A stretch of 64,000 nt of DNA from Adineta vaga. Lineage: Eukaryota; Animalia; Rotifera. The position numbers and the translations under genes are program-made. Each line of letters begins with the position of its first letter. The stretch's first letter is position 1. The notes below the pieces were generated by a model. That model was not told where the DNA came from. It ran no database searches and saw only the letters and a list, made by a program, of their open reading frames with translations. The stretch is from the NCBI GenBank assembly GCA_021613535.1, contig CP075493.1, positions 16,616,001 through 16,680,000 of the forward strand, in the 5' to 3' direction. Below are positions 14,164-62,600 of the stretch, one piece after another.

Positions 14164-16232
14164 ATGAGTAACGATACTGTAGACAAACGTCAACACTTTG
14201 ATGTTCTTCGAAACATCGAAAACTGGTTAAAAGTATTGACTAATCCAAAAAATCTTAACACGACAATGAAGTTATTTGAAGATGAAGATATCAAGGAAAT
14301 TGGTGATTGTTTCTCTGAAAATTTAAAGAAAATATTTGCTGTGTTAATGCCGACGAAACGTGCACAACTTCTCATTATAACATTTACAAGATTAATTCAT
14401 ATTTATGATGCCGATCAGAATGAATACATTACATCCCAACCAGCATTTTTATCTGTGACTAAAACTATTGTAAACGATATTTCTAACCTAATGAATCCAG
14501 ATGAATACGCTGATTATCATACAGAAATACTCAATCTACTTTTCAAGACTTTTGCAAAAGATAATTTTCTCATTCATTGTCTTCAAGAATTCTTTCCAAA
14601 TAAACCAATATCAACTACAAGTAAGTTTAAATTACCATCATTGTTAAAACAGATTTAGCTATATGATAGATTACATTTAGACTTTAACAGTATAACGATT
14701 ATTTAGATCCCGATGTGAACAACAAACAACGTTCACAAACGACTTTTGATGATATCAAAGATTGTCTATTACAGTTAATCGAACTGGCTTATGATCCTCG
14801 AGAAATAACTACTCTTCAATCTGCAGAAGATTTCAGTCACAATTATCGATCTCTGATAGAATGGTTACTTGCATATACCGATGAGTTTCTCAATTGTTAT
14901 GATGAGCATGTTGACTCCGAATCTCAACTCGATAACATCGATAATATATTCGGTATAATAATAAATTTAGCTGACATAATTTCGTTAGTACCGATGTTTA
15001 TTGACGCTAAATATGCCGAAACGACTGTTAAATGGTTAATACAACCATCGTTACTTGATTTTATTTATCAATTTGGAGAAAGCATTATGCGGCTTATATA
15101 CAATCTCTCCAGACATAAAAAAGGTTTGAAAAAATTGCGAGAAATTGGAACATTTAAGATTTTGATGGAGCATAAGGAGCTTATAAAGAAAACAGGTAAT
15201 CCCGATTTAATCGAATCATTTGGCATGCTATTAATTGCGTTAGCAAGAAATGACGATGAAGAAAAACAAAATGAAGATGTTATCCTACCAGTTAGTGCCA
15301 ATCTTTTCGAGAGTATCAAGAAAGCTTTCAGTAGTGAAGACTGGAGACATGATGGATGTCATTTGTCCGAATATCTTTATTCACTTCAAGGTGCATTTTC
15401 AAACAAAACGATTGTCCAACATATATTGGGTGATTCAAACCATGTGAAAAAAGATAATATTCAAATTTTTATAGAACTTTTCCGTTCCAATTATGGTCTA
15501 TTATTTAATCAAGATGTAAATGATCTCGAGAAGCTTGTTGTCAAGTCTTTATTAAATATTATTTTGTGCATTTCGAATTATAAAGAATATCGTTCTGTAC
15601 TAACTGATGATGTTTTTTTAGGCGTTATTATTGAAAGTCTTTCTAAACAACCTAGACAAGCTGTTGCCAAACGAATTTGGTCAAATCTTAACCATTCTGA
15701 AAATTCAAAATCGTTTTTAAATAAATTAAAAAAAGACAAAACAACAGAGATCTATATTAGTTATAACTGGACTGATGGAGAATATTGTCGTAAATTTGTT
15801 AAGTCTTTACGTGAACAGAGAAAATTTTCAATTTGGGTCGATTATGAAGAAACAGATGAAAATGAAGATCCTTGGGATTATGTAGCGCCAGTTATTGAAT
15901 CTGCGACAGTAATTATTATCTTAGCATCGAGTGCTTATGCTTATAGTAAACATAATCGCCAGGAATTAAATTATGCAATGCGATCCGAATTATCCGGCGA
16001 GAAAAAAAATTTTATCGCCGTCAATATTGAACCTACATTTCATTTTGATCCATTGCGGATAAACGATTCGTTAACAGTAGATGAAATCTTATCGAATGGG
16101 GATAGTATCGAAACATTGGCTCTTAAAACTGCTGTTCACATAGATCTTTTAAAGTGCAAAACACAAGTGTCACATTCGAGCTCATCTACCACTATCAGTA
16201 CCATTCAATCAATTGTTTGTACTCTCATGTGA
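14164..16232 (+). CDS. ARM/helical-repeat + TIR (TIR_2-type) protein with C-terminal CaaX; exons 14164..14620 and 14707..16232
   Basis: TIR motifs IYISYNW, SIWVD, IESATVIIILAS, S..NRQELNYA. ARM-like LIYNLSRH. Ends CTLM*. An 86-nt phase-1 GT-AG intron joins the ORFs. Confidence 0.88.
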
Positions 16233-20409: not shown

Positions 20410-22169
20410 TTAATTCATATTTGCTGGCTTATCTTGAGGGTGTGGGTGTGGATGTGGGTGTGAAAGAAGAGGAGATACCCACACCCACACCCACACCCTC
20501 AAGATGCTACCATATGTATTAGCAAGATTCGGATGAAATGGTGGAAGATACTTTCTGTTAATTTCAAGAGCTTTCGTGTAAGAAGATAGTGCTATTGAAT
20601 AATCTCCTAATGATTGATAATTATTGCCAAAACTACGATGAATAACAGACTCCAATTCAACATATTTTACTGGAAGTAAATTTTGGAGGATATCAAGAGC
20701 CTTTTTATAGTATGATGATGCCATGGAATAATCATCTAAGGTATGGTATACCATGCCAAGACTATTGTAAACTTGAGCTACTAGTGGATGATTGGGTGAA
20801 AGGACTTTTTCTATTGTTTCAAGCATATTTTCGTACCACAATAATGCAGTTGAGTAATCTCCAAGAGATGCATATGCTGTAGCACTGTTAAGGAAAAGAA
20901 CAGGTAGAGACGTAGCTATTTCTTTTTTACTACTGTTCATCAATGTCTCAAACAATGTGTTATAGATTTTTAAAACTTTTTCAAATTGTCCCATTTTAAA
21001 CATTAAACCAGCCATACGCATCCATCCCGATCCATCTCCAATTTCTATCATATCACCTAAGTGAAAGATAGTGTGCATTGAAAAAAGAATTTCTTTTTCT
21101 GATTCAGCATAGAAACTAATATCATCCAAGGCAGCAAATGGAACTGACGATATGGATGGATCAATTTCTATTTGAAATAGAATTGCTACCACATTGGGAT
21201 TACCTCGAGTACTACGAGCAAACAACAATGAAACTTGTTGATCAATACTTGTCGATAAAAAGTTGTTAAAAGATAAAAGAGCACCTTTGTTGTTTTTCAT
21301 CTTTTCAAATTCTTCACGTGAAACTCCTTATCCTCGATAAATAATTGTTTTCGTCATTGAATTATTTGTTGAATGAACTCGTTCGATCTGTCGATGAAGA
21401 TCTTGAATAAAAAATGCCATTTTAATAATCATTTCGATATTTTGTTGTCTCAAAGATTGATTCTTTCGTATACCACCAAATAGGTGAATAAAGTTTGTAA
21501 TCACGTTCAAATATGTTAATCAAATCCAATAACATATGATTATACGCATATTCTCCACGACATAGACTTATAAATTCATCTTTTGCTTTTTCATCAAATT
21601 TCATTTCTAAGATGACTTCTTTCAATATTTGTGAATGCATAAATGATTGATCCAACTGATCGATGTCATATCATTTTCAACTTTATAAATGATACATTTT
21701 AATGCATGACAGATTGTATCCATATCAGAGAATATGGCTTGCACTTTTTAACCTTGTTTTGCATCATATTCATATCGAGTTTTACCATAATCATATACAT
21801 AAATAACCTTTACTTGATGAATATCGTTGAACAGTTGTAAAATCCATTGACTAAGATCGGCTGAGATAATCATGAATACTGTCTGATCTTTCAAATCAGT
21901 ATTCTTGAATATTTTCACAGAATTACACAAACAGCAAAGTTTATCAATAAACAAACTTATGTTTCCATTAGATTCACATGTGTTCATACCCAACCAGATA
22001 ATACAAAAGGAATCGGAAAAATGTACTCGAGGAAATCTTGATACAATATACTTTGGTTTTTCAATGGTACTGACACGATCAATCGGATGAACCGATGAAT
22101 TCGAAATTGTGCTGATTGAACTGAAGATGATTTGCTCACATGCACCGTGGTTTCCAAAGCGTGTTCCAT
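20410..22169 (-). pseudogene. ART (ADP-ribosyltransferase)-TPR pseudogene
   Basis: DQLDQSFM, SPIWWYTKE, IYRG, FNNFLSTS, SEKEILFSMHTIF and TPRs, broken across several frames; a hairpin insertion sits at its 3' end. Confidence 0.88.
20431..20505. mobile_element. Telomere-repeat hairpin mini-element, best-preserved copy (core GAAAGAAGAGGAGAT)
   Basis: atcttgaggg(tgtggg)n-core-(acccac)n-accctcaagat with a perfect terminal inverted match; lies inside TPR coding sequence. Confidence 0.88.
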
Positions 22170-24000
22170 GACGATATTCTACGACCTACGGTAAGTTTTA
22201 ATCTTGCTTATTTTTATTTGTTCAGTGCAAAATAGATTTCACGTTTGTTACACCGATGAATTGACTATTGCATGTATATTTAAAGAGTCCACATGTTGTT
22301 GCTTTCTTGCTTCAATACTCTTTTTTGTATTTATTGCCTCAGATTTTCTTTTTCTTTTCTTCTGTTCGTTTGTTTTTTATGTGGTAGGAATATTCACTCT
22401 TGCAAATAATATAATGTTTTCATGTTACAAATTCAAGTAAATTTTTCTAAACAGGAATATGAGAACATCAATATAATATATACAATGTTCGTTTTTCGAA
22501 ATAAAATACAAATATTCGCTATACATAGGACGAAAATAATTAATAATCCTTATCGATTATGAGCTTAAGCCTCTCTTTCGTTCACTTTTGCATAGAATCA
22601 CAGAATTACAAAAAATAAGGTAGATAAATATATAATAAATACTGCTTAGAATTAGAAGTGTGTACAGTAAATTTTATAATTTAAATTCAAAGACTTAAAG
22701 CCAATAAATCATTTAATCCTTGACGTAAACATTTACCATATGTTTATTCGTATTTAATAGAACTTCAAAAAGCTGATGATATACCAAATCAAATTCAATT
22801 CTTATTATTTCGTGATTTTTTGTTAAATCAATTTGTTCACTTAAAATTCGTAACATTCTATGGTATATTTTCAAATGAAATTCTTCGACTAACAATTTCG
22901 ATCCTATGTTATATTCATGATATCTATTCGTCAAGAAAGGAAGCTTTGATGCTACTGCATTGTTTCGATTATTTCACTGTACGCCAAATCTTCGTCATTT
23001 AACTACTCATATTGATACTACTGACGGGGAACATGCATTTCGTTGGAGGAAAGTTGTTTTTTTTGTTGACTTTTTGAAGAAATGGAAAGAGTGCTTTACG
23101 CAGAAGACACTCTTAAGTGTGAATAAACATCAGTCGAGGGTGAAATGAGTCGTTTCGATGAGTGTTACTTGTAAGTTCTAATTGAGAAAAAAAAACCAGT
23201 ATAAGAAAAGAGATAAGAAATTACCTTTTCAAAGTAGTGACTCATGCTTGGAAAAAAACCCAGTATAAGAAAAGAGAAACAAAAAGTTACAAAAATCATT
23301 AACAATCAGTGAATTCTATGTAATTTCGAACAGCTTGCGAAAGTGACAGCAACATGTACTAAAACAATAAGAAATTCATTTCTTTTCTTTGATCTGTATT
23401 CAATATTATACTTTTACTCTCTGTTATGAACCCAAATGGCTGCCTTCCGGTTTTGAAGTTTTCATTCATGAGAACAATCGTCTATGGTGCTCCCTTGAAT
23501 TCCTCACTACTACTACTTTTTCTATTTTTTACTCCTTAATTTCATGTGTTTTCTATCTTTCCCCACTTATTATTTTCATTACCTTAATTTGCTCTTTTTT
23601 CTCGTCTCTACTATATTAGCTCGCTTCTTCTTTGTTATCAGAAACATTCATTAGAGCGCCTCAATGACGTTTTCCATGGAGCTTCTAGCATATGAATCCT
23701 CTATATTATCAGATGTATTATCTTAGTAGCTTGTTTTTACTAAGATATGTCTTTGTAGCTGTCGTCTCATATATTTTTGTTTTGTTTCTAATGTATTGAA
23801 TAGTAGATAGTAGTTTATAGGAAAGAAGAACAAATATCATTACAATATTGCAACGTCATCATATTTTTTATTCTGTTCTCCTCTTTCGTTCCTATGTTGT
23901 CGTTGCTCGATAGCTTATACGGTATATATTTAGTGGTATTTTTTCTTTCTATCTCTTTTCTTTTTAATCGCTAAGATGGAGGTTCTCTTATGTATGTTGT

Positions 24001-24060
24001 GTATGTGTGTGAGTGTTGATATAGGTGTTGTTAAAGAGCAGACACCTACACCCACACCCC
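24001..24060. repeat. Degenerate telomere-repeat hairpin
   Basis: gtgtgagtgtt..taggtgt..acacctacacccacaccc. Confidence 0.45.
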
Positions 24061-24973
24061 AGTTTTTCCATCCCATTCTGAAGTTATACCAAAATACGTC
24101 TCTTTTAACATCCTAGGCGTAGATAAGATCAAACAGCTCGAGCAACAATATGAATGCTCTATCTCTGAAGTGAAGAAACGTTAATATCTAAGTAACTTTT
24201 ATTGAGTTTTGGTTTCGGTCGGCGTTATCCGCTGGCCCGCCCTCGTCCTTTATATGTACATAATTTAGCTGAATTTTTCGAGTTGCAACACAAATATGAC
24301 GGTGAATTGATTAGAATTATAAAATAACGTTCTCTTTTCTTTCTTCTTCCTAGAAAATTGTTTTTGTCTTCAAAAGAATTCTTTAATGAAGAAGAAGAAC
24401 ATATTTCAAAGAGTTATTTCTCTGTAAATATTTTGTTGTTCTTTTTAGTCACTTTCTGTTATTCAGAATGTGTTACAGATAGCTTATGCAATTACACTGT
24501 TTTCGTACAACATGACTTTTGCTCTTTCTTTCTGGCTGAGGTCGTATCGGCGAAAGAACGAGGAAGACATTTTTGTTTTTGATTAAAAGGATTTTTCCTA
24601 CCTGAGAGTTTTTTCCTTGCTATTAAAGGTAAACGTAAATATTCAACAAAACGTTTTCAAAAAACAAAGCTAAGCTTGCAAGCAGACAGAAATCTGTTAT
24701 CCTTTTTACAGCGGCAGCAGTGTAAAAAACGACAATAAGCAAGAGCATGGCTGTTAGGGATGTATATCTTTGACAGCTCGTTCCCTTTCTTTCTTGTGAC
24801 GTTTCTTTTGTTGTAAATTTTATCACTTATTTGTTTTGTAAAATGATCTTGAATTCAAACCAAAAGTCTGTCCCTTGTCCTTTCAACTATTTCCTATATC
24901 TCTCTTTAAATCTCTCACTCGTTCTCTCGGTTTTCTAGATCTAAAACCTTACCATTAATAAAGAGATTCAACA

Positions 24974-25249
24974 ATGGCTAATAGACCGTCACGTTCACGT
25001 ATGACAGAAGATGACGCTGAACCATTGATCGTCGCACAGGGATATAAAAAAGCGAATCTTCGCCTTCACGGTAGAGCTGTTTATTTCAATCCAAAGCAAC
25101 CAAGTAATCTTCAATATATTACCTACGATGTGGACGGACATAATGGTGGTGTCTGGAAAGCTGGAGATAAGAAGTGGGCTGAGGGTGGAGGTAGAAGCAC
25201 GAGTCGAAGCGGAACCTATGACGAAAATTTGAAGAAAATTGGAAAGTAA
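24974..25249 (+). CDS. Stand-alone Ntox21-family (CdiA-CT / colicin E3-like) RNase toxin, 91 aa
   Basis: GYKK...HG..VY...YITYDVDGHNGGVWK...RSGTYDENL matches the DxDxH, NGGxWK and RxG[ST] hallmarks. ACAATGG start context; AATAAA downstream (about 25316 and 25339). Confidence 0.85.
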   Translation: MANRPSRSRMTEDDAEPLIVAQGYKKANLRLHGRAVYFNPKQPSNLQYITYDVDGHNGGVWKAGDKKWAEGGGRSTSRSGTYDENLKKIGK

Positions 25250-26002
25250 TTTAGTTTTTTATAATTATTTTATACGTGTTTGCTTACTATTCTCTTTATA
25301 TTCCTGACTCTTATAAATAAATATGATATCCAAATAAGAATAAATTTTATCCTTCAGTTATAGCAGTATGTTAGTTTCGAACAAGGTTGTGGGGTGCAAG
25401 TGGGGGAAGAAGTCATAGAGCCAAAACCTCCTAATTTGTTTATGAGAAAAGATCAAAAGAGAGAGAAAAAGAAAGAAACCATCACATAAATCTCTCATAT
25501 AAATTCAAAAATGAAAATATTGTTTAATAATTGATGTGCGTTTCTGGTTTGAAAAGAAGAGAAGAGAAAAAACAAAAGTATTTCTAGAGGTTGAGGGTGG
25601 GTGAGTTAGAGAAAGAAATATGAAAGAGTTTGATGTAAGATGCAAAAGATTCGTTCGTCCACGAAAAGATAAAGTTAATCATAAGATATATCCACTTAGA
25701 TATGCTCGAATAAGTACGAGAAACTTATCCGAAAAGATCATTAAATCAGAGTAGGAATCGAACCTACATCTTCCGATAACCGGTCGTTTCTGATGTTTGG
25801 TGAACGTTCTGACTATTTTGTCTATGTCACTTTTGTATTGCTTTGCCTTATTATTTGTGCCTCTGGTGTTTATATGCTTATCATTTTAATCGAGTGTGCT
25901 TATGCCGTGTATGCTTTTGCGTTTAGATGACAGTATTTTGACCTTTATTGTTCGTGTATCGCTCTCAGACACGGTATGCAGTGGAGCTCTAACGCTCTTT
26001 AA

Positions 26003-27585
26003 CACATCCGAGGCGATGTGAGCCACCGGTGGCTCACACTGTATTTTAACGAGAAAATGACTTACAAAATAGATTTTTTTGTGATTTTCATAGCAGAAAG
26101 TGATAGTTAGTTCTACATCTATTCCGTCTATAGCACTAGTTGATCTATTTTATTATGAAGAAAAATGCTTTTCATTAAAACAATCAGAAGAAAAAGTTTT
26201 TACTCTCTTTGCTGCTGTTGCACTCGCTTCTCTTGATTGTTGTTGTCTAGTCTTTTTATAGCAACCGACACATCTTCTTCGGACATTGCGTGCAGGCCCT
26301 TTCATTTCTTCGAGCAGGTGATCAAGTGTGTTTTCGTTTTCTCTGGCTTGTTGACTGTTGTCTTGGGCCAGGTTTCAAATTTTCATATGGTTCACCGAGA
26401 AGTAAAGATCGTACAAGACTTTCACGAAATTGCAGCATGGTCATATTGTTTGTGTCATAAAGTTCTTTATAAATCACATATGCATTAACTATTGAAGTTC
26501 CAAATATCAGTTCGAATGCTACCTTTTGATACCATTTTATAGACAGTCTGAGGCATGTATAATATGCTGAGAGTTGGTCAGATACATCTATACCTTTTTT
26601 TTCCTTCATTATAATCCAGTACAAACTGTGGCTTCATAATACGTTCATTTAACTTATTTGTTTTCGCTGTATCTACCACGGCTGTTGAATGTGATGGTTT
26701 TGTAGATATCATCAAGACATCTCTTTTATCTTTCCACTTGATCAGTTTGATACATTCTTTGCTCTGAAGAAAGATCATTTACCAATTGCATTACAATTGT
26801 TTCAGTATGACTTTGACCTGCTATTGAACTCTGCTTACCAGTATAAACCATAAAATTCCAAGTATATCCTGTTATAGTTGCCACCTTGTATATTTTCACT
26901 CCGTATTTATGAGATTTACCAGGAATATATTGTTTGAAGAAAAGTCTGCCTCTCCATGGCACCATTGCTTCATCAATAGTAATAGTTGAACCGGGAACGT
27001 AAACTGACATAAATCTGAGTTGCAGTAGGGTCAAAAGTGGTTTCAGCTTGAACAATCTGTCTTGATCTTCATGTTTCTCCTCATTGTTTGAAAAATGACA
27101 AAATTTGAGAAGTAGTTCAAATTTATCTCTTGACATGGCGTTTTGAATAACTTTGGAACCATACAACTTGCTTTTGCTTCAATAATAATTACCAAGAATT
27201 TTAATATTTCTTCGCAAGTAGTTGGTTTCTACTGAAGAGTTTTTGCTCGTTTGGTAAGTTCGTGAGCTTGTAAGTGTTGTTGTGCATATCGATTAGTTTC
27301 ACAAACCATCAGGTTAATGATTTCGTTAGTGATGAAATGACGATAACAATCAATAGGATTGGTTGCATTATATTTCGAAGTTACAGTTACTTCTTTGACA
27401 ATTCCATAATCTTCTTTAAACTCAGCATCCGATTCTGTGATACATGTAGCAAAGAATCGATCACAAACAACAATTGATGACAGCATAGCCGTTATTTCGA
27501 GCACATGGTCTACACTAAAATGAATATTTTGCTTGTACATGTAATGAAAATAAAATTTCAAACTGAACCACTCTTCATCTAACAT
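26003..27585 (-). mobile_element. Decayed piggyBac (PGBD4-like) element with frameshifted transposase; one terminus retained
   Basis: ETNRYA, MSRDKF, TIDEAMVPWRGR..KQYIPGKSHKYGVK, KWKDKRDV, GIDVSDQ, KWYQK. TTAA at 25999-26002 followed by a terminus containing the palindrome gtgagccaccggtggctcac. Confidence 0.88.
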
Positions 27586-27737
27586 ATTTAAGTTAGTGAG
27601 ATTGACGACAAATACTCGTTATGAATTTTCAGTCAAACTAAAAAAACCTATCTGGAAGTTTCATATATAAAAAATCAGAGAGTCTTTTGTTTGTAATGAT
27701 GATGAATTATTTTCATCGATCATTAGTACTATTCATG

Positions 27738-28076
27738 AGCTGTCTAATTTGAATTCGAATATAAATGAAGAGTCAGGTGCTCCATAGAACTTCGAAAATA
27801 AATGAAGACAACGAGAACTAAAACTTCCCTGTGTAATAGACATGCATTTAGTTCTGATTGTATGCATTTCTAGTGTTCACATGAAAGCCCTTACGAAAAA
27901 GTAGGAATAGATTTTTTCGGTTTTTTTCAGTTATAATCCAGATATGCAGACATATCTATATATTAATGTGATTTATAAGTATGAATAACTAAATCTACGT
28001 CTTTATTCAGAATAAGTTTTACGCTCAGATGTATTTTCAAAATGTCCATTTATATTCGAAGTCGAATTAGACAGCT
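27738..28076. mobile_element. MITE with 30-bp TIRs
   Basis: agctgtctaatttgaattcgaatataaatg versus catttatattcgaagtcgaattagacagct. Confidence 0.75.
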
Positions 28077-28080
28077 ATTC

Positions 28081-28137
28081 CTTGAAAGAGGGTGTGGGTG
28101 TACCTCTCTCTCTCTCCAGCTTCCTAACTCACACATT
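28081..28137. repeat. Degenerate telomere-repeat hairpin
   Basis: cttgaaagagggtgtgggtgt ... ctcacac. Confidence 0.4.
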
Positions 28138-28376
28138 TTACCATCATCCGGTTTTATGATGAATCATGCTAACAACATTTATCTCATAAAATAAATGTTA
28201 CTGTTGCTATGTAATGCTGTTTTATAACCATGTATCATTGATAAATGCGTCAACTATCAACAGAGAAGCAAATATTCTTTATAAAGTATTTACGATTGAG
28301 TCATTATCTTATCAGTTTAGCGCGTGTGTATGCATATATATACTAGATTCTTACTTTTACTTTTGCAAACATTAAC

Positions 28377-30233
28377 ATGAAGTTGATAATAATTTTCTTC
28401 TTTATTTTTTGCTGTTATTTATCAACATCACATTCACAAAACTTATATCATTGTGATTTTGAAGACAAATGTGAAGATTTTCTATTTGATTCTTATTGGA
28501 TTGTCGAAAATATTTCATCACATATTGATCATACATATGGAAATCTTTCTGGTCATTATATCACATATACCAATACATCGACATCAACTCCATTAACTAC
28601 ATTTCGTACACGAAATTGGGTATATACATCGGCAAATTTTACCACCTGTCTCACTTTATGGATTTATTCTGGTCCAGGTAGAGTTAATTATGAAATTCAA
28701 ATGGCTCAGGGTGATGATTTACAAACTCGACTTCCTGTCGGAAACATTGGAATGAATTTGGATGATCCACAATGGCGTAGTATGACCATAGAAATGCCAT
28801 ATGTTAGTCATTATATTCCTTATATTGTCTTGACAAATATTACAAGCAAATTAGATCTTGATGATATTTCCGTTTCATCATGTCCGACCACAAGACCTAT
28901 TCAGCCAAAAATAACGGTATTATCTTGTGATTTCGATGAAAATTTATGTCCTGAGCTGTTCTCATTACCTTATTATACCTATAGTTGGTCGGTTGTTGAA
29001 GCCCAACTTGCACATAATTATACATCAGATGCACCGATCGTCGATTACTCTATGAATGATACACAAGGTATTTTCAAAGTTGCGATTGATTAAATCATGT
29101 TCTCTTCTTTGTTCTAGGTCATTATATTTGGGTTAACAATTCCCGTTCGTCACAAAAAGGTGTTAGTGGTTATCTCAGTACCAAAGTCTTTAATTTTACA
29201 CGAGATGATCCGACGTTTTGTCTCAGTTTTTACTATTATGGATATGGTATTCCTGTAGAAAATCGTCAACTATCAGTATTCGCTTTGACCAATGGAAGTA
29301 AAACATCCTTGGAAAAAATTTGGCCAATAAATCCAATTGATTATAAATATGCAGTCAATCAATGGTGAGTGATCAAATCGAAAGTAAAATATATTTAATA
29401 CCTTTCTTTCGATTAGGACATGGGCATATGTCTCATTACCAATTGGTACTTATTCTCTTCTATTTCGTACAGAAACAAATCATCCTCAAAGTGGTTCATT
29501 CACTCTCGATTTGATCGAGATCAGTTCCTGTGAGTATCTTCAAAGATATTTCTATGGTATTTCCAATCTGAATTTTACTTGCGATTTTGATTCTTCCGCG
29601 GATTATATGTGTGGTATAAGTAATGATATGGCTGGTCTTCAACCACAATCTACAATTGATTTTACAGTACAATCACCGAGAACTATCGACGATCGAGAAC
29701 TTGGTCCAACAGAATCATCTGGTTATAGTGGTCCAAACTTTTTGTATTGGTCACGTTCAGGAAGTAGTCCAACATCTGTAACGAGTGGACAATTCAAAAC
29801 ACCTTTACTGGAAACTAGTCCAGATATGTGTGTTCGATTTTCTTATTTCATTAGTTCACCTGATGACCTATTCGATGAACCAAATATGAAACTCGAAGTA
29901 CTAACTTTAGGTTGTGCAAATGAAACTATTCGAACTGTTAAAGTAGATAACACTTATCGATGGGAAATGCTCACTACAACTTTAGATAATATTATCTGTA
30001 CTCAATCGATTTATTTTCGAATCACTCAACAACAACCAACAAGAGCAGCTGTAGCGATTGATGATATAACGATTGGATCATGTTTTGGACTACCTCCGTT
30101 GACGACTACTACTAGTACTCGTCGACCGTCGACTACTACACTTTTTAACAAAACTTCATCGAATTATGTCAATTCTATTTTTCTGATGATAATTTTAATT
30201 TTTCTCTTGAAAATACATTCAAGTAATTGTTGA
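28377..30233 (+). CDS. Secreted/GPI-type protein with three MAM domains; exons 28377..29067, 29118..29364, 29417..30233
   Basis: Signal peptide; CDFE, DHTYG...GHY, CLSFYY, LDDISV / AIDDITI motifs; Thr stalk; hydrophobic C-terminus. Canonical GT-AG sites. Confidence 0.88.
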
Positions 30234-33573: not shown

Positions 33574-36492
33574 CAGGCCCGTAGCCAGGATTATTCTAAA
33601 GGGGGTGCCCTTAATTAAAAATGTGCATTGTCACTTTTTTCTTGTTATGTATTAAATATATACAGAAAACGTTTGTGAACATTGTTGAATAGATCCTTAT
33701 TTAAACGCTTTATTCAAATATTGGAGTGAAAGATACATGTATCGTGTTTCAATATATCTTTTTATTTCGTAATGTAATGACAAAAACAACTGGTTAGTTA
33801 AATAAACTACAAAAACATAGTATTGCTTAGATGTTTGTTAATTTCATTCGACGTTTATCTTTGCAAAAAACTTTGATAACTTCTTCGACATCCAATTTTG
33901 ATGCGATATCATGATGAATGTGAATCAAAGCTAGATTGCTTAATCTTTCATCACCAATACTGTTTCTCAAACTAGTTTTAATACGTTTCATTGCTGAAAA
34001 TGATCTTTCAGCAGTAGATACTGTAACTGGTAATACAGCAAACAATTCGAATAAACAAAACAAATTAGGATAGAATGATCGAATGGATAATAATACATTT
34101 AATGAATCAACTACATTAGATGGCCTCTCGGCAATGGAAATTTTCTTCCACTTGTACTGCCACATTTCAAATTCAGCCATTAACACGTTCATATCATTCG
34201 ATGGTATATCATCTTTGTAAAAATCAAATGCTTGTTTTACATCATTAAATTCCTTGTCGACAACATACGAAGGTAATAAATTGGATATATTAACTAAAAT
34301 TGTTTGATGTTTGCTGAATCGATTTCCAAGTTCGGTTAATGTCGTTTCAATAAATTTTTCATAGATATTTTTTAAATAGGCACTAATATTTGTATATTTA
34401 TTCGTTCTTGGAAGAGTAAGCATGATATCATTATCACCTGCAAATTGTTCCAGTTCCGTTTCAAGTTCATTAAATTTTGTCGGATCATATTTTAATTCTG
34501 CAAGGTATAATGCTGCTTCTTCAATGTTGTTATAGCATTGCGCTAAGTCATAGTTTTTGCTTTGAAGCATTTCTGTATATGGCTTTAAAATGGCAAAAAC
34601 ACGTGATACGACGAAGAGGTAGATGATAAAGTCTGCATCTTTAATACACTTGAAATATGCACGAGCATTTGCACTTGTTTCGGCATCAGCACTCTCTATC
34701 AAGTATTCCAATGCAATCATGACACTAGTAAAAAGTTGTTTGAAGACCAAAACAGAAGTAGCTTTTTCCACCCAGCGATGTTCGACCAATTTGGCGAGCT
34801 TCTGTCGTTTACTGTTGCAAACAGTAGCTTCCACAGCCTTTTTTAATAAGTTTTGCCTTTTCGGCGAACCACTGATGAATTTAATTATTGCTTTGAGTGT
34901 TCCAAAAAATAATTTTATAATTTTGTCATCACATGCATCACAAATAGCAAGATCGAGTGAGTGACTAGCACAATGTACATAAAGTGCGCTAGGTGCTGTA
35001 TCACAAATTAATTTCTGAACTCCACCGAGATGACCAGACATAACTGAACATCCATCATATCCTTGACCTAAGTTAGTTGAAAATATGTCAGAATTATTAA
35101 TGGAATCATTTGGAAGCTTACCTCGCAGATATGTTAAATCAAGACCAATTGAACGTAAGTACTCGATAATCTTGTCAGAAATTCCTTTAGCTGAACTATC
35201 AGCGATTGGTGTAAAACCAATAAACTCTTCTTTAATCTGAATTTGATTATTATCATAACATATGTAACGAATCGATAAAGATAATTGCTCTGTACCACCA
35301 ATATCTGCTGTTGCATCAACTATAATCGAGTAAAACTTCTTTTCATCAATAACACTTCGAATAATTTTTTCTCTTATCATCCCACCACAAATTTTTATTA
35401 ACTCATTTTGAATCTCGGCGCTCATATACATGGCATTTTTGGAGCAATTCTTGACATGTTGTTCCAACGTTATATCACCACTGTCAATTCGGAAAAGTAT
35501 TAATTCTTTGAAATTACCTGAAAGAAAACAAGGTATTATAGGAATATTTCCTATTAAAAGTAATTACCTAGGCTTTGTCTGTGTTCAAACGGAATACCAT
35601 CATCATCATCGCCTCTAAAAGGTAAATTCTGTTTACCAAGAAATAAAACACATTTTATAATGCTTGCTAAAATCTTTCTGTTCGTAGCCACTTGTTCTTG
35701 ATCTTTTTTATCTAGTGTATGATCGATAGCTTTTTCTGGTGTTGAGTAATTGATAATAAAATTTTCGGCTTGTTCTTTGGAAAATGTATGATAAGTAGAT
35801 TTTTCATGAGCTTGCAATTCTTCATGTGCACTGTGTAATGATAGAAGAGGTTTGGAAACAAGTTGACCAAGAAGAGTTTTTGTTCGATCAGATGAAGACC
35901 ACTTCCGTTTGAACAGAACACAGTAACGACAGAAAACACCACAAGAAACATGGGAATAACTTAACCATGAATATCTGGATAGCCATGATATTTGACAGAC
36001 TGATCGCATCTTTTTATGTACGAGAACTTTAGGAAATTTGTAATTATCCAATGGTGCCCATGAATTCATTAATGCATCATGAATTTCAGCAGGTGATGTA
36101 TCATCTTTACCGACAAATAAACCGATATCATTTTTACTAAATGAGTGAGCTTGTGTATTCGTTAAAGTTTCATGGTCGTTTGACTTGAATCTTTTCGAAT
36201 TAAACGAGTTATCGAGTGCAACACATGTTGCTATATTTGATTCACCAAGAACTACAGGTACCGTTTGTAATGGTTGAGATAAATCGTTTTGTGAAGGACC
36301 AAGAGATGTCGAATTATCTGTTGTTCTCTTATTTGAATTAAAAAAGTTCGAAATATTTAATTGTTTGCTCATCTACAAAAGAAAACCGTCGTTATTTGTA
36401 AATTGTCAAAGTGAATTACTTAAATAATATTTTTTTTAAAATCCAAAGGGGGTGCCCGGGCACCCTATTCACCCCCCCTGGCTACGGGCCTG
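33574..36492 (-). mobile_element. hAT DNA transposon with 16-bp perfect TIRs
   Basis: caggcccgtagccagg / cctggctacgggcctg enclosing a transposase. No matching 8-bp TSD. Confidence 0.92.
33827..36372 (-). CDS. hAT transposase (PRKRIR/ZMYM1-like, TTF zinc finger + dimerisation domain); introns 35518..35567 and 35068..35121
   Basis: WLSYS...GVFCRYC, H..S..H, FRG, GNF, IQNELI, SIIVD, EQLS, GQGYDG, HCASHSLDL, HRW, AERSFSAMKRIKT.LR. Appears intact after splicing. Confidence 0.92.
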
Positions 36493-49381: not shown

Positions 49382-51961
49382 ATGGATACTATAGACAGAC
49401 CAAATCTCGAAGATTTTACAATTATATGGCTTAGTGATAGTGCAAATTCAAATAACGTACAAAATGAACTTCGTGAAATAATCAATTATGTTAAAATATT
49501 TCATAATGTCGATCAATGCATTGAATATGTTTCAAAAGCAGTAGATGACAATATATTTATTGTTCTGTCTGTAAGTACACAATCTATCCTTGAAACAATA
49601 CATGATTTAAAACAAATTGAATTAATTTATATCTTTCCTGCTGAGACTATAAATAACTCTGAATATGAGAAATGGTCAAAAGTTGTTGGTATTTTTATTA
49701 ATAAAGAGACATTACTTCGAAAGTTAACCAAGGATATTGAATTACGTATGAAAAATTCTCTCATTTCAATAAGCATATTTAGCATCAACTCAACAATCGA
49801 AGAAAAGTCAACGCGTGAAAAATATGAAGCATCATTTCTGTGGTTTCAATTAGTATTGGAAGTCTTGCTTCATTTACCTCAAAATAATCGAGGTATGAGT
49901 GAAATGTTAAATGAATGTCGCCTACAATATGCAAATAATCAAAGTCAAATTGACAGTATTAATGATTTCGAAGCCAATTATAAAGCAGATAAAGCAATTT
50001 GGTGGTACACACGAGATTCATTTGTTTATAGAATAATAAATCGAGCACTTCGTACGCAAAATATTGATATAATTTTTAAATTTCGGTATTTCATTACAGA
50101 TCTGTATACACATTTATTAGAGTTACATAAAGAGTTTTTAGAATCGTTGCCACCCATAGAAAGCGATAATGATAAAGTGTATCTGGATGTTTATCGCGGA
50201 CAAGCTATTTCACCGGATGAACTAAACAATATAAGTAAAAGTATTGGAAAGTTAATTTCAATGAATACATTTCTATCGACAACAATGAATAAAGGTCTTG
50301 GCATGGTTTTTGCTGGTGTTGATCGTCCAATAAATGATCCGAAACGTTCAGTTTTATTTCATATGACAGTTGATACGAGTATACATACATTTCCATTTTA
50401 TATCATTCCAAATAGTGCAGAAGATGAAGTATTATTTTCAATGGGAATAATATTTAAGATTGATTCAATTGAACAAAATGGCAATATGTACATTGTCAAA
50501 TTAACGTTAAATAATGATGAAAACAAAGATATTGAACAATTTATTGAGTTTTTAAGGAAAGAAATCAATCACTCAGATACAACACTCGCAACACTGGGAA
50601 ATTTTCTCGTTTATTCAAATGAGTATGATAAAGCTGAGACATATTATCAAATATTATTAAATGAACTTCCATTAGATCATGAAGATATACCAACAATATA
50701 TAACAATATTGGTTTAGTTTATGATTTGAAAGGAAACCATACACATGCATTACAATATTATAATAAAAGTCTTGCTTTTCTAGACAACGTGACACAAGAT
50801 AAACAATCATCACTTGCATTACACTACAATAACCTTGCAGCAACTTATTTTGCTAAAAAGGATTACGATACAGCGATATTATACTATAATATGACTCTCA
50901 AAGTTCAAACAAATCTGGCTGATTTAGCTACTACATACAACAATTTAGGAACACTTTCACGTGAAATTGGTGATTTTGATTCAGCATTGAAAAGTTTTAC
51001 AGTGTCACTTGAAATGAGTTTAAAATGCCTTCCAATTTATCATCCAGACTTAGCAGCAACCTACGGTAATATTGCTACTGTTCAACTTCAAATGGAGAAT
51101 TATGAAGAAGCATTAATAAATTACAAAAAAGCGCTTGATATTGCTCTAATAAGCATAGCAAACGATAATTCATGCATTGCACTACTTCACAAGAATATTG
51201 CTTTAATTTATTACATTCAAAAGAATTATGATGAAGCATTAAATTACTTCCAGGAAGCTCTTAAGCTTGAACTTTCACATGAGTTTTTATCCCTCTCAGC
51301 TATTCATAGTGATATTGCGGAGATCTATCATAAAAAACATGAATACGATCTTGCACTACAAAGTTATAATGAATGTTTGAATATTCAACTAAATCATCTT
51401 CCCCCTCACCTCGAAGATCAAGCCACAACGTACAGAAATATTGCTTTAGTTTACAAATCAAAAAATGATCTAACACAAATTATAACTTATTACAATAAAT
51501 GTCTGGATATTTATAAAATGATACTTCCTTCTAATCATCCAGATTTATCATCTTTATATCATGATTTAGCAATGACTTATCACGAAGTCCGAAATTATGA
51601 AGCAGCAATCGTAGCTCTTAAGCATGAACAAGAATCTTTACCGCTCGGTGATTCACATATTCCGATGACATATGAAAATCTTGCAATCAATTATGATGAA
51701 ATAAGTAAAGATTATTATTTGAATGGAAATTATCAACAGGCAATAGATACATTAAAAAAAAGCCTACATATTCAATTACAACAAACACCTAATGATGATG
51801 AGTTAATTTTGTTAATAAGCAATGATATTGAATCAATTACAGCAGAAATGAAAAAAGACAGAACTAAACGTAGAACAGTATGGTCCTGTTTCTCTCTTCC
51901 TTTGTCCTGCTGCTCACCACGACGGACTAAAACAGTAAGACGAAACAGGAAACAAAAATAA
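49382..51961 (+). CDS. ADP-ribosyltransferase (R-S-E clade) + TPR protein, 859 aa, single coding exon
   Basis: AIWWYTRDSF, NRALR, VYRGQ, FLSTT, AEDEVLF, followed by about 10 TPRs (YNNIG..Y...G.Y..AL..Y.K.L). Confidence 0.92.
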   Translation: MDTIDRPNLEDFTIIWLSDSANSNNVQNELREIINYVKIFHNVDQCIEYVSKAVDDNIFIVLSVSTQSILETIHDLKQIELIYIFPAETINNSEYEKWSKVVGIFINKETLLRKLTKDIELRMKNSLISISIFSINSTIEEKSTREKYEASFLWFQLVLEVLLHLPQNNRGMSEMLNECRLQYANNQSQIDSINDFEANYKADKAIWWYTRDSFVYRIINRALRTQNIDIIFKFRYFITDLYTHLLELHKEFLESLPPIESDNDKVYLDVYRGQAISPDELNNISKSIGKLISMNTFLSTTMNKGLGMVFAGVDRPINDPKRSVLFHMTVDTSIHTFPFYIIPNSAEDEVLFSMGIIFKIDSIEQNGNMYIVKLTLNNDENKDIEQFIEFLRKEINHSDTTLATLGNFLVYSNEYDKAETYYQILLNELPLDHEDIPTIYNNIGLVYDLKGNHTHALQYYNKSLAFLDNVTQDKQSSLALHYNNLAATYFAKKDYDTAILYYNMTLKVQTNLADLATTYNNLGTLSREIGDFDSALKSFTVSLEMSLKCLPIYHPDLAATYGNIATVQLQMENYEEALINYKKALDIALISIANDNSCIALLHKNIALIYYIQKNYDEALNYFQEALKLELSHEFLSLSAIHSDIAEIYHKKHEYDLALQSYNECLNIQLNHLPPHLEDQATTYRNIALVYKSKNDLTQIITYYNKCLDIYKMILPSNHPDLSSLYHDLAMTYHEVRNYEAAIVALKHEQESLPLGDSHIPMTYENLAINYDEISKDYYLNGNYQQAIDTLKKSLHIQLQQTPNDDELILLISNDIESITAEMKKDRTKRRTVWSCFSLPLSCCSPRRTKTVRRNRKQK

Positions 51962-56215: not shown

Positions 56216-58698
56216 CCCTAGTAGTACCGGCCTATTTTTAACAATATTTCAGCGACATATGTTTTATAAACAATTTTTTTTCCTTTTTTTGATTAGTTTT
56301 GTGCTGTAATAAGCTATTTCTGTATATGACTTGATAGAAAAATGGATATAAATTTCTTTATTTTGAACAAGCTATACAAAAAATACGTTTAACAGAATGC
56401 TCATTACAAACAAATGCGGAACAATTACAACATTGAGTTGAAGTCTTTTTATCCATAGAATAATCACAAAGTGAGCAGCGTTTTCGTTTCGTTTGAACAG
56501 AATTTTTATCCACTTCTCTTAAGTTTGTTTTTGTCACAGGATAACCAACAATAGCTAATGCATTTTGAATGTCTTTGTTCAAAAATTTCGCATTTTTCGA
56601 ACGAGAGTCCAACAAGTATGATACTAAGCTGAGTCCTAATTCTTCCAAGAATAATCGACGTTTATGTTTTTTATTTTTATTCCATTCAGGATTTTTCGTC
56701 TTCCAGATGACCAGAGCATTTATTGCAGCAATGTCTATCATTCCATAAAAGATACAAAGCGGCCATCGTTTAGTACCTCTTTTTACCTATAGAAAAAATA
56801 ATACAAAAACGTCTTTAGAAAATTATTTTTACCGTATATTTATGACACATCTGATCAACAGTATCGACAGCTCCTTTTGTTTTATTATAATCCAAAATAG
56901 CAAGTGGCTTTCCGGTTTTATTGTCCACTTGATTATCATGATGTTTCGAAGATAACAATAAGACTGCTTTGTTATGTTTCGGTACATACGAAACTAAAGT
57001 TAAACCATCTTGAAAACCAAAAAGTGAAGAACCTGCTTCACGATTTTTGTTTGATTGAAATTCTATAGGTAATTCTGGTTTATTTTTTCGTAATGTACCA
57101 ATAAGAGTAATCTTTTTTGTCTGCAGTTCTCTAGCTAATGGAACGCTTGTGAAAAAATTATCCATTGTCACGTTCGTATTTGAGCCGTAAAGGGGTTCAA
57201 GCAGTTCTAAAACTACTTTGGTACCTATATGTGATTGCCTTTGTTGATCCGGTTGTCGTCCGATGTAAGGAAATGCATTGAATACATAATATGAATCTAC
57301 ATCAACACATAACCAGAATTTTAATCCATATTTATCAGTTTTTTTGGAATAAACTGACGAAAAGGACATCTTCCTCTAAATGGTAATAACTGTTCATCAA
57401 TAGTAACATTTTGTCCTGGAATATAACATGTTTTTAAATTATCTTGAAAATACGACCAGATATCTCGAATCGCTGCAAATTTATCTGTTCTTTTTCTTTC
57501 TTCTCTTGTTTTTTTATCATCAAATCGTAAACAAGAACTAATTTTTTGAAAACGACTTCTTCACATCGTGGCTTTAAATACTGGAGATTCCAATGGACTT
57601 CTTCTCCATAAACATTTTATGTTTCTCTTCGATTGATGTAATAAGCCGGCAAGTAACAAAAGACCAATGTAAGCTTTCAATTCTATCATTGTTATTTCTT
57701 GTGGTTTTTCATTGGAAGCAATGTTTCGAGTATATTCCATGTTAGAATAAGTCAAAATTTTTTGCGTTATTTTTTTGGACATAAAACAATTAAATGTATC
57801 TTCAATAGATGAAGCATCTTTAGTAATTTTGGTAAGCCCAGATATTTTAATAGGATTATTTGGATGGTTAGTTTTTGTTAAATGATGAGGAGCTGATGAC
57901 CAGACCATCCCAGAGCTGGAGCTATATGAAGTTTTTGTGATAGAATCGTCATTTAATTTAGGATCTTCTAAATCAATTTCATCATCATCTTCTGATGTTT
58001 GACTTTCGTGATCTTCTGTTTCTGAACCACTATCTTGATTTTCAGAATCGTCACTATCACTATCACTTTCATCTTCATTCAAATTGTCCATAATCTATAT
58101 TATAGTATTACAGATGTTGGATAAAAGTTATATAAGAAAAAAATTCAATCTAAAAGTCACATATAAATTGAGAATTAGATAAACTTGATTCACTTGAAAT
58201 AATATATTAGTATGTAAAATTGAAAATAAAATCCGATTTTTTTCCATGATTTTAAAACGTTCAATATAATATCTTAATTTTATTATCCAAAAAATATAAA
58301 ATAAACAAAACAAGTTATATCAACGATATATGTGGTCTACCACGATATCAGTCATCCATCGTCGTCATTGGATAGCTTAAAACCACCAAAAAATTGCTTT
58401 TAGTCGTTTGGACATATATATTCAAATCGAATTCTTATATGAGTCATTGGATTATTTATGGCAAGTTTCATTTTTTTTCTTTTCTTTCATACACATGTAA
58501 TAGAGTAAAGAGATATTCTTATACCAATAGGTTATAGTGATAGAGAAATTAAATATATGTTTGTTCATATTCAACAATATGTATATAGTGAAGATAGATG
58601 CGATGTGCTGCTAAAAATTGGAAAAAACAAATTATTTTTAGCATATTTTCAAATTTTTGAAGGAGGGTCAAAAATGACCCTGGCTGGTACTACTAGGG
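56216..58698 (-). mobile_element. Full-length piggyBac transposon with TTAA TSDs and 17-bp TIRs
   Basis: ttaa|ccctagtagtaccggcc ... ggctggtactactaggg|ttaa. Confidence 0.95.
56358..58091 (-). pseudogene. piggyBac transposase with a nonsense codon (about 57561), a frameshift (about 57360) and an intron 56787..56832
   Basis: TIDEQL.PFRG, KYGLKFW, DNFFTS, GTLRKNK, YNKTKGAVD..DQM, KRWP, C-terminal Cys-rich domain. Confidence 0.9.
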
Positions 58699-59613: not shown

Positions 59614-62600
59614 CTAAAGCCGTCTCCATTGCAATTTATTTCTCACAAATTCAATCGATTCTCTAGATGATTGCAAGTGCAGATGGTCTGTAGGTAAACA
59701 GATTTGTTCAATTTCAAGGGCACATTCGAGAAAGGGTAGTGCCTTAGAATATTCAGCCATTCCGACATAAGCTCCTCCAACATTATGATAAGCGGTAGCT
59801 AAATCGAGATGATTGCTAGGGAGATTGACCTTATGAATTTCTAGTGCTTTCTCGAATGCTAGAAGTGCTTTCGAATAGTCACCGAAGCTGAATGACATCT
59901 GCGCGACGGCGTTGTACGATGAAGCCAGACTAGAATGGTTTGCAGGGAGAATGCTTAGACGCACTTCCAATGCTTTTTCATACGATAGGAGCGCTTCTGA
60001 ATATTCTTTCATACTATAGTACGCCCGACCAATATTGTCATACGATTTAGCAAAATCCATATGGTGTGAAGGAAGACTTTGTTTACGCACTTCAAGGGCT
60101 TTCAGAAAAAAAGAAAGTGCCTTTGAACAGTCATTCGTTTTGGAATACACTCTGCCTATATTGTCATAGGGTTCAGCGAAGGATCGATGGTTAACTGGAA
60201 GACTTTGCTGAAAGATGTCCAGTGCTTTGTGGGAGGAGAAAAGCGCTTTGGAGTACTCTCCTAGTGCTGTGTATACCATGCCGATCTTGTTGTAGGCAGT
60301 TGCTAACTTAGGATGAGTTGGTGGAAGACTTTTTTGATACATTTCTAGCACTTTCTCATGAAAAGAAAGTGCTTTCGAGAGTTCACCCAATTCTCCATAC
60401 ATTGTACCGATATTAGAGTAGGACGCGATCAGCTCAGGATGATCAGAAGTATAAGCTTTTTCGAATATTTCTAAAGCTTTTTCGAAGAAGGCCAGTGCTT
60501 TTGAAAGTTCTCCCGTATACTCATAGACAAGACCAAGATTATTGTAGGACGTACCTAAGTCAGAATGATTCTGAGGAAGAAGGTTTTGACGAATTTCCAA
60601 CGCTTGTTCTAAGGACAAGAGTGCTCTACTATGATCGCCCATACAATAAGCCACAGTACCGATGCTGTTGTAAGTGGAAGCCATTTCCAGATCATTGGCT
60701 GGAAACATTTGTTTTCGAATTTTCAGTGATTTTTCAAAAAATAGAAGAGCCTTCGTATAGTCTCCTATACAGTTATATGCGTGACCGATATTGTTGTAGC
60801 ATGAAGCCAGGTTGGGATGATTCTCACGAAGAACCTTTTGATAAATTTCAGCGGCTTTTTCGTGGGACGAAATGGCTTTGGGGTATTCACCTAATGTTGT
60901 ATACACCGAGCCGATACAAAGGTGCAAAGTACCCAAATCAGGGTGACTTTCGGGAAGCATTTTTTGGCTAATATCCAGTGCTTTCTCGTAATAGAATAAT
61001 GTTTTGGAATAGGCACCCAATTTCTCGTTCAAGACACCAATGTTAATGTATGCTGAGACCAGGTCCGGATGAATTGGAGGACGACTCTTTCGATTTATTT
61101 CCAGCACTTTCTCGAATAATGATAACGCTTTGGAATATTCACCCAATTTGTAATATGTACTAGATATGTTACTATATGAAATAGCCAAGGATGGATGAAT
61201 GGAGGGCATCGTTTGTTGGCGAATGTCAAGTGTCTTCTGGAAACATGAAAGCGCTTTCGAGTATTCTCCCGTGTATATCCACACAGATCCGATGTGACTG
61301 TAGCAATCAGCTAGACGAAGATCAGTTGCAAGAAGACTTTCTTGGTAAAGTTGAAGAGCTTTCTTGTGACAGGATAGCGCTTGTGAATAATCACCCATTT
61401 GACTATATAGCGAACCCGTTCGATTGAGATAGCAGGCTAAACTGGTAGGGGTCTGTGTGTTTGTTCTTTCTATGATTTCTTTGGCTTTTTCGAAAAATGA
61501 TATTGACTGCATATAATCACCTTGACCACGTTTGATGTGACCTAACTGCTCATAGAGGTGTGTTTTGTCATTATTATCCTTTGTCATCTTATCAAGCAGC
61601 GTTCGACACATCTCTTCAGCCTGATCATATTCACCCAATTCGATGAGTAAGCTGCTCAGTCGTGACCAACTAGCTGATTCGCGAATACCTTCACGCATTC
61701 GATCCAGAAGAGCAGCAAGTAGAGGATCGCCATCACTGGTCAGTTGAAGTTTGACATGCCAAAGTCGATTCGTGGTGTCCAATGCATTGACTTCGACGAT
61801 ACGAAAAACAGTATGCATGGAGAAGAGAATCTCTTCTTCCGATCCAAACTGACTAACGTCAGATACAGAAGCAAAAGGAACTGTGGCAAGGGAAGAATCA
61901 ACACTCATTTCAAAGAGAATTCCTATTAAAGGGGAATTCATCTGATGGCTCTCAGCAAAGCAAAGAGAGATATCTCGGCTCGTACTAGTCGACAAGAAGC
62001 TGTTGAAAGAAATTAATCCACCTACTGTTCTGATCAGATTAGCGAAGTCTTCTGTCGATAATCCTTGTCCTCGATAAACTATGAACGGTTCCTGTTTGTC
62101 CTTAAATTGTTCCTCATGCATTTGCTTGATGTGTCGATGAAGATCGCTAACGAAAAAGCCCATATTGATAATAGTAATGGTATCCAGCTTGCGCAAAGAC
62201 TGATTGAGCGTCGAATAGAGAAAGGATTCTTTTGAATACCACCATACAGGCGATTTGGTATGATAGTTCTGTTCAAAGTCCGCGAAAAACCGAAGTTGAA
62301 AATCGTTACCAGCGAACTTCTTATGGCAATTAACAACGAAGTCTTTTAGACATTGTTCGTCGTAGTGGGCTTCAAACAAGATTTCTTTCAGGATCTGAGT
62401 GTACATAAATGACTGATCTAGTTCATCTAAATTTTCACTAGAGATCTCATCCACTGGGACAAAACTGATCGAAATAGTATTTTGATCATGTTGCCGCGCT
62501 GCTTGTTTGAGTGATTCACAGATGGCGCCAATATTTAAGAAAATATCCTCTACTTTGTGCCAGTCTTTTACTAGTCGTTCATGACTTTCCGTCTTGTTGC

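Follow-up and report, generated by a model that had tools for sequence, protein, structure and literature searches.

Introduction

The closest described relative of the locus presented here is the C-terminal toxin of CdiA from Enterobacter cloacae ATCC 13047 (CdiA-CT-ECL), whose active site is given in the accessible part of a review as D203, D205, H207 and K214 and which cuts 16S rRNA at A1493/G1494 (PMC9086364). Colicin E3 and CdiA-CT-ECL are reported to share their cleavage site (PMC9304027), and colicin E3 also cleaves the 18S rRNA of isolated eukaryotic ribosomes, as stated in the accessible portion of another review (PMC4639596). The Ntox21 family is described with a lysine, a [DS]xDxxxH motif, a second lysine and RxG[ST], and the available text of that source lists it for bacterial phyla only (PMC3482391); as of 2022, no eukaryotic ribotoxin of this kind had been reported (PMC9304027).

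Foreign genes are common in bdelloid rotifers according to the accessible part of PMC3499245, hence transfer alone is ordinary in these animals, and an excerpt of PMC11258130 describes the upregulation of foreign genes in response to a fungal pathogen. More than half of bdelloid transcripts carry a 23-nt spliced leader (PMC1925144, accessible part). An initial annotation of a 64,000-nt stretch of the Adineta vaga genome (hereafter the window) had pointed to an orphan Ntox21 domain standing as an animal gene of its own; the structure, expression, kinship and possible function of this gene are considered below.

Results

Gene structure and transcription

The intact 91-aa ORF was confirmed, with the stretches YITYDVDGHNGGVWK and RSGTYDENL and the C-terminal KKIGK (Table 1), and its start reads TTCAACAATGG, a eukaryote-like context as had been noted, preceded by a stretch free of ATG back to the acceptor. 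The product is small and basic (computed pI 9.7). Its coding sequence is intronless and has a GC content of 43.5% as compared to 33.1% for the window, with a GC3 of 34% that falls inside the 18-38% range of six neighbouring ORFs. The predicted absence of a signal peptide held, the best 11-residue hydropathy in the first 35 residues being 0.21 as against 2.74 in P0029, a relative from Adineta ricciae, and no delivery domain was found in the protein by Pfam search or in its structural model, the mRNA having no ORF but that of 91 aa. One Ntox21-scoring copy is present within the window, and the exact protein was not found in a collection of 15 billion proteins. No informative repeats or inverted ends were found around the gene, a Rfam search over 21000-29000 gave no match and ARAGORN found no tRNA.

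Table 1. Positions within the window of the toxin-domain gene and its transcript features (L001, independent metagenome contig).
Feature	Positions	Strand	Remarks
Pyrimidine-rich tract and trans-splice acceptor	24881-24938	+	AG at 24937-24938, conserved in L001 together with the tract
5' UTR after the spliced leader	24939-24973	+	35 nt, without ATG; covered by RNA contigs
Single-exon CDS, stand-alone Ntox21 (CdiA-CT-ECL-type RNase) domain	24974-25249	+	91 aa; RNA contigs without joint
Predicted active-site codons (D52, D54, H56, K62)	25127-25159	+	alignment to 4ntq_A
3' UTR; AATAAA at 25316-25321 as likely poly(A) signal	25250-25337	+	ends of RNA contigs

At least half of the words of 24850-25360 occur in 14 of the 24 listed sequencing runs. 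Expression was assessed in four presumed RNA runs from two studies, whose contigs were aligned to 22500-26300, while the evidence on expression leaves out six RNA runs of environmental origin (word shares 0.06-0.10). Each of the four runs (4/4) contains one contig that spans 24937 to 25331 or 25337 with no mismatch and no joint; three have no further cover in the 3.8 kb, and run X11 adds three short unrelated pieces. Short pieces of 25689-25786 match abundant unrelated RNA contigs of this run, and the same interval holds a tRNA-T-loop-like word on the minus strand that neither ARAGORN nor Rfam matched. None of the words of 24850-25360 was present in two further RNA runs of the same two studies (X22, X23), an absence that could be compatible with condition-dependent expression.

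In the contigs of three of the four RNA runs, position 24937 is preceded by CTTACCAAG, which together with AG equals the 11-nt 3' end of the spliced leader known from rotifers, GGCTTATTACAACTTACCAAGAG (PMC3795323, Table 1); the fourth run has four other extra letters. The chance of nine given letters matching the leader end at this place is about 4e-6, and the window holds no exact copy of the 11-mer and one match with a single mismatch, for 0.65 expected by chance. The upstream pyrimidine tract ending in AG, previously proposed as a UTR or trans-splice acceptor, is thus an acceptor in use. The 3' ends fall at 25331 in the two runs of one study and at 25337 in the two runs of the other, 10-16 nt beyond the AATAAA at 25316, as judged from contig ends that carry no visible poly(A) tail. 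Of the AATAAA signals mentioned in the initial annotation, which are located at 24957, 25316 and 25339, the one at 25316 fits, whereas that at 24957 is probably irrelevant because it lies inside the 5' UTR and reads AATAAC in L001. Between spliced leader and 3' end the mRNA contains the 91-aa ORF and no other, and this ORF is therefore not an exon of a longer protein. The toxin-domain gene is expressed by the host, with mRNA ends of host type.

Domain identity, fold and active site

The assignment to Ntox21 was borne out by a match to Pfam PF15526 of 65.6 bits (cut-off 25; E 5.3e-18), covering residues 23-90 and profile positions 7-70 of 71, while NCBIfam returned no family for the protein. 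Against the PDB, a profile of 99 relatives retrieved 4ntq_A at E 1.4e-14 and no other match under 0.6; a single-sequence search gave 4ntq at no better than E 0.45, the profile being needed for a strong match. The AlphaFold2 model (pLDDT 84) consists of a helix at residues 12-21 followed by an antiparallel sheet. In the VIA fold comparison this model ranked 4ntq_A first (Z 7.4, rmsd 2.4, 67 aligned residues, 33% identity), a moderate score that nevertheless exceeds by 2.8 that of the second-ranked structure, the colicin E3 cytotoxic domain (4V5K; Z 4.6, rmsd 3.5, 74 aligned, 11% identity). Foldseek likewise placed 4ntq_A first with probability 1.00, but at an E-value of 0.028. The predicted structure thus supports the kinship to the E. 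cloacae CdiA-CT that had been claimed from sequence.

In a pairwise alignment to 4ntq_A, residues D52, D54, H56 and K62 match D203, D205, H207 and K214, reported for CdiA-CT-ECL in the accessible part of PMC9086364. The family motifs are present as K26, T50-x-D52-xxx-H56, K62 and R78-S-G-T81, the threonine at T50 occurring in 4ntq as well. A terminal RxxD was not found, the window copy ending in KIGK at a variable motif outside the reported active site; KKIGK had been read correctly in this place and is private to the window copy. KIGD ends 8 and RIGD 3 of the 17 full-length cytosolic-type proteins described below, and among 79 bacterial loci RIGD occurs in 47 and KIGD in 10. The 91-aa protein is a member of Ntox21 and is not part of a polymorphic toxin system.

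A bdelloid family

The gene is no orphan, contrary to the initial annotation, since other bdelloids, namely Adineta steineri, Rotaria socialis and R. magnacalcarata, possess stand-alone relatives of 91 aa. A first protein search gave seven matches among nine candidates (62-82% identical, 70-91 aa), the relatives from named bdelloids lie on contigs of up to 544 kb, and UniRef labels the rotifer relatives automatically as 'Novel toxin 21 domain-containing'. Across 17 full-length cytosolic-type proteins, several of them near-duplicates, 51 of the 91 positions are invariant, with 14 of 17 in residues 48-64 as compared to 21 of 47 in residues 1-47. D52, D54 and K62 are kept in 17/17, with H56 serving as alignment anchor, and both the RSGTYD strand and a basic N-terminus (N3, R4, S6, R7, R9) are invariant in the cytosolic-type family. 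A tryptophan follows the catalytic lysine in 32/32 rotifer-type proteins and in 1 of 79 bacterial loci. Such retention across bdelloid species of two genera, with a conserved catalytic core, is what would be expected of a domesticated toxin.

Other family members depart from this pattern. P0006 from Rotaria socialis is a divergent second cytosolic-type paralogue (about 60% identical to P0001, found on 15 contigs) with a long tree branch. P0007, P0025, P0026, P0197 and P0239 either miss residues 33-53 or have an unrelated C-terminus after residue 72, and these gene models may reflect either damage to the copies or errors of intron prediction.

An independent metagenome contig, L001, carries the same gene with matching flanks (93.5% identity over 2042 nt) and departs from the window sequence beyond 25578. 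The two coding sequences differ by 18 non-synonymous and four synonymous changes, a dN/dS of 1.34 that is not different from 1 (p 0.79) and gives no sign of purifying selection on the window copy, and non-synonymous divergence is 8.5% vs. 4.4% in the flanks (p 0.016; one DNA pair). At the 15 residues that differ, the family majority is found at nine in L001 and at two in the window (sign test p 0.065), so that the window copy appears from the alignment to be the more derived of the two. Its changes include A76T, where alanine is present in 15/15, and D91K, and none of the 15 touches the active site. The fast evolution of the window copy, seen in one DNA pair, is compatible with positive or relaxed selection.

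A four-cysteine sister subfamily and putatively exported forms

A wider search (363 matches at E 0.001) revealed a sister subfamily whose domain has four cysteines, including P0029, P0028, P0037, P0118, P0194-P0196 and P0245. Its members have threonine in place of D54 in 15/15 proteins and keep D52, H56 and K62 in all 15, while the residue equivalent to D54 is aspartate in 77 of 79 bacterial loci. P0029 has 97 aa, is 54% identical to the window protein over 69 residues, starts with a hydrophobic signal-like stretch and has a predicted fold that resembles 4ntq (Z 6.1). In P0245, an Adineta vaga model, a PAN region is joined to the second half of a four-cysteine Ntox21 domain, which may be a mis-joined gene model.

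Longer forms were also found. In P0145 and P0231 a signal-like start is followed by two CBM_1 modules and an acidic linker, then by a middle region and, at the C-terminus, by the four-cysteine Ntox21 domain. P0244, another long form, shares the middle region (42% identity), which has no Pfam or Atlas match in these proteins. The layout of the three resembles a targeted eukaryotic toxin architecture. In P0030, P0200, P0201, P0203, P0205 and P0208 (112-113 aa) a signal-like N-terminus directly precedes a bacterial-type Ntox21 domain, and stand-alone exported forms may also exist outside rotifers. Viral contigs contain five Ntox21 loci with 36-42% identity to P0029.

Bacterial relatives, origin and missing immunity gene

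Bacterial relatives are spread over many phyla (79 loci retained after 167 of 187 pattern matches had been confirmed) and occur, for example, as C-termini of Rhs and PAAR proteins; the best are about 50-57% identical to the 91-aa protein, and the Atlas matched a bacterial Ntox21 cluster (0.91). An ORF of at least 60 aa starts no more than 60 nt after the toxin stop in 71 of the 77 assessable bacterial loci (79 examined), where an immunity gene is usually found. At the rotifer gene, as had been stated, no adjacent immunity ORF is present, none lying on the same strand close to the 3' side of the stop and the first in L001 being 535 nt away; an inhibitor may be encoded elsewhere, unlinked to the toxin gene.

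In a phylogeny of 136 rows and 79 columns, midpoint-rooted, with many open forks and with bacterial rows picked by similarity to the query, the 20 rotifer-type rows formed one branch (100/94). After removal of the shared loop (97 rows), support against named bacteria was 81/80 and a single change was found in 98% of the bootstrap trees. One origin of the rotifer-type proteins is therefore likely from the alignments, leaning on the shared loop. All eukaryote matches with an organism name are bdelloid, among database matches that mostly carry no such name, and other eukaryote hosts may exist. Since the relatives span many bacterial phyla and all named eukaryotes are bdelloids, the direction would be from bacteria to bdelloids. 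An old transfer in this direction is likely on the distribution of relatives, which also supports the bacterial origin put forward when the gene was first noticed.

Neighbourhood of the gene

The Pfam neighbours in the window are of animal type or transposon-derived: TRPM, TIR, TPR, NHL, MAM, DDE_Tnp_1_7 and hAT. Two broken DDE_Tnp_1_7 transposase genes, which we take to be piggyBac-like, are located at 26153-27585 (-) and 56358-58091 (-), and a hAT element at 33827-36372 (-). A 30-nt inverted repeat (27738-27767 and 28047-28076, 93% complementary, 279 nt apart) is possibly a MITE. Genes with TPR repeats lie at 20410-22169 (-), 49382-51961 (+) and 59614-62937 (-); the last has a weak ART match (E 3.9e-5), the other two are similar to it N-terminally by eye, and the one nearest to the toxin gene is in pieces or multi-exon. 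A TIR_2-domain gene occupies 14164-16232 (+). Taken together, the TIR_2, NHL, TPR and MAM genes suggest that possible defence and signalling families are abundant in the window.

Discussion

The reading that we favour, at a little short of an even chance, is that a bare Ntox21 gene was likely acquired once from a bacterial polymorphic toxin and likely kept as an active RNase that would cut the decoding centre of microbial small-subunit rRNA. Only the toxin tip would have been captured, with an ATG, a splice acceptor and a short N-terminal stretch of basic character added to it, and the protein would still cleave metal-independently at the site equivalent to A1493/G1494, as CdiA-CT-ECL does. 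Its targets would be microbes eaten by or invading the rotifer. As to its role, for which an antibacterial or translation-shutoff effector had been put forward initially, we infer activity, target and route, and see slightly less than even chances that the protein is an active, metal-independent rRNase that serves in defence, with ribosomes of bacterial type as its most likely target. A preference for ribosomes of this type would account for the tolerance of a cytosolic protein that has neither signal peptide nor antidote; such selectivity is, however, not given, because colicin E3 is reported to cut 18S rRNA in isolated eukaryotic ribosomes (PMC4639596). Delivery is the weak point: with neither signal peptide nor translocation domain, the protein has no evident route into an intact bacterium. 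The four-cysteine sister forms could be exported versions of the same weapon. A wider scenario, which we regard as possible yet on balance doubtful, has one captured toxin tip giving rise to a bdelloid ribotoxin family, in which a cytosolic antidote-less form and exported four-cysteine forms, some with cellulose-binding modules, would all cut the decoding centre of invaders.

A serious rival, although we consider it unlikely, is an active ribotoxin directed at eukaryotic-type ribosomes. These could be the rotifer's own, in which case the toxin would shut down translation or kill the cell when it is infected or stressed, or they could belong to invading fungi or oomycetes. The signal-less cytosolic form is made beside host ribosomes, the nucleotides of the decoding centre are described as universally conserved (PMC9304027), activity of colicin E3 on the 18S rRNA of isolated eukaryotic ribosomes is reported (PMC4639596), and the two CBM_1 modules and signal-like N-terminus of P0145 would suit walled eukaryotic targets. 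However, the mRNA is present in four runs of two studies and no antidote is adjacent, hence a self-active toxin would need a brake.

Exaptation to a task other than that of a weapon (for example in the general turnover or the binding of RNA, or in digesting ingested RNA, its specificity being weak or altered) appears quite improbable. While the invariance of the four active-site residues and of the RSGTYD strand in the cytosolic family speaks against it, and the parallel exported and CBM1-fused forms would fit conflict better than housekeeping, it accords with the rotifer-specific loop after the catalytic lysine, with the invariant basic N-terminus, with the replacement of D54 by threonine in the sister subfamily, and with the mostly metabolic enzymes among expressed foreign bdelloid genes in the accessible part of PMC3499245.

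It is also conceivable, at a low probability, that the family is functional in other bdelloids and that the window copy is decaying under relaxed selection. The dN/dS of 1.34 against L001, the non-synonymous divergence above that of the flanks, nine changes off the family majority and the loss of the terminal aspartate would be expected in this case; nevertheless no stop or frameshift has arisen, D52, D54, H56 and K62 are unchanged and the gene is still transcribed and trans-spliced, divergence faster than in the flanks is easier to reconcile with positive selection than with drift, and a terminal lysine is found in bacterial members as well (RVGK, KVGK). Bacterial contamination or an assembly chimera, suggested by the intronless structure, the elevated GC and bacterial relatives about 50-57% identical, is hardly credible and already largely refuted by the rotifer spliced leader on the mRNA, the recurrence of gene and flanks in L001, relatives on long contigs of named bdelloids, a GC3 in the range of the neighbouring ORFs and the lack of an immunity ORF.

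Returning to the favoured reading of a defensive RNase, the rotifer protein shares with CdiA-CT-ECL the Pfam family, the predicted fold and the D-x-D-x-H...K site (4NTQ), and differs from it in the lack of an N-terminal delivery region and of an adjacent CdiI, in the trans-spliced mRNA, in an extra helix after the catalytic lysine and in the rotifer-type KKW loop. The cytotoxic domain of colicin E3, second fold match of the rotifer model, belongs to another Pfam family and comes with receptor and translocation domains and an immunity gene, all of which the rotifer protein lacks.

To our knowledge, few bacterial toxins have been domesticated by animals, and those best known attack cell walls or DNA. 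Insect cdtB is reportedly a further bacterial toxin domain kept as a host gene. The Dae effectors of ticks act on peptidoglycan from outside, a target absent from animals. As in the rotifer, these amidase effectors are a bacterial toxin domain retained by the host, in the accessible text of 10.1101/2020.04.10.036376; unlike Dae, the putative rRNA target of the rotifer enzyme is also found in the host, and the window copy has no signal peptide. An rRNase of the decoding centre would be more difficult to domesticate, its target being shared by the host. Other genes acquired by bdelloids are likewise foreign, placed among animal genes and host-expressed, and those described in the accessible parts of PMC3499245 and PMC11258130 are mostly metabolic or biosynthetic enzymes (NRPS/PKS, RNA ligases, glucanases), unlike a toxin domain. 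A search of main-text passages and of 13 of the 16 supplement files of PMC11258130 gave neither Ntox21 nor PF15526, and our literature search found no paper on a rotifer Ntox21, although supplements and subscription papers may list members.

A domesticated decoding-centre ribotoxin would be new. Should the protein spare 80S ribosomes, selectivity can replace an immunity protein; should it cut them, the rotifer must hold some brake. It would possibly be an offensive RNA weapon beside the ligases for RNA repair whose induction by bdelloids in response to fungi is described in PMC11258130. If the proposed function is true, the family would represent eukaryote-encoded counterparts of colicin E3 and CdiA-CT-ECL.
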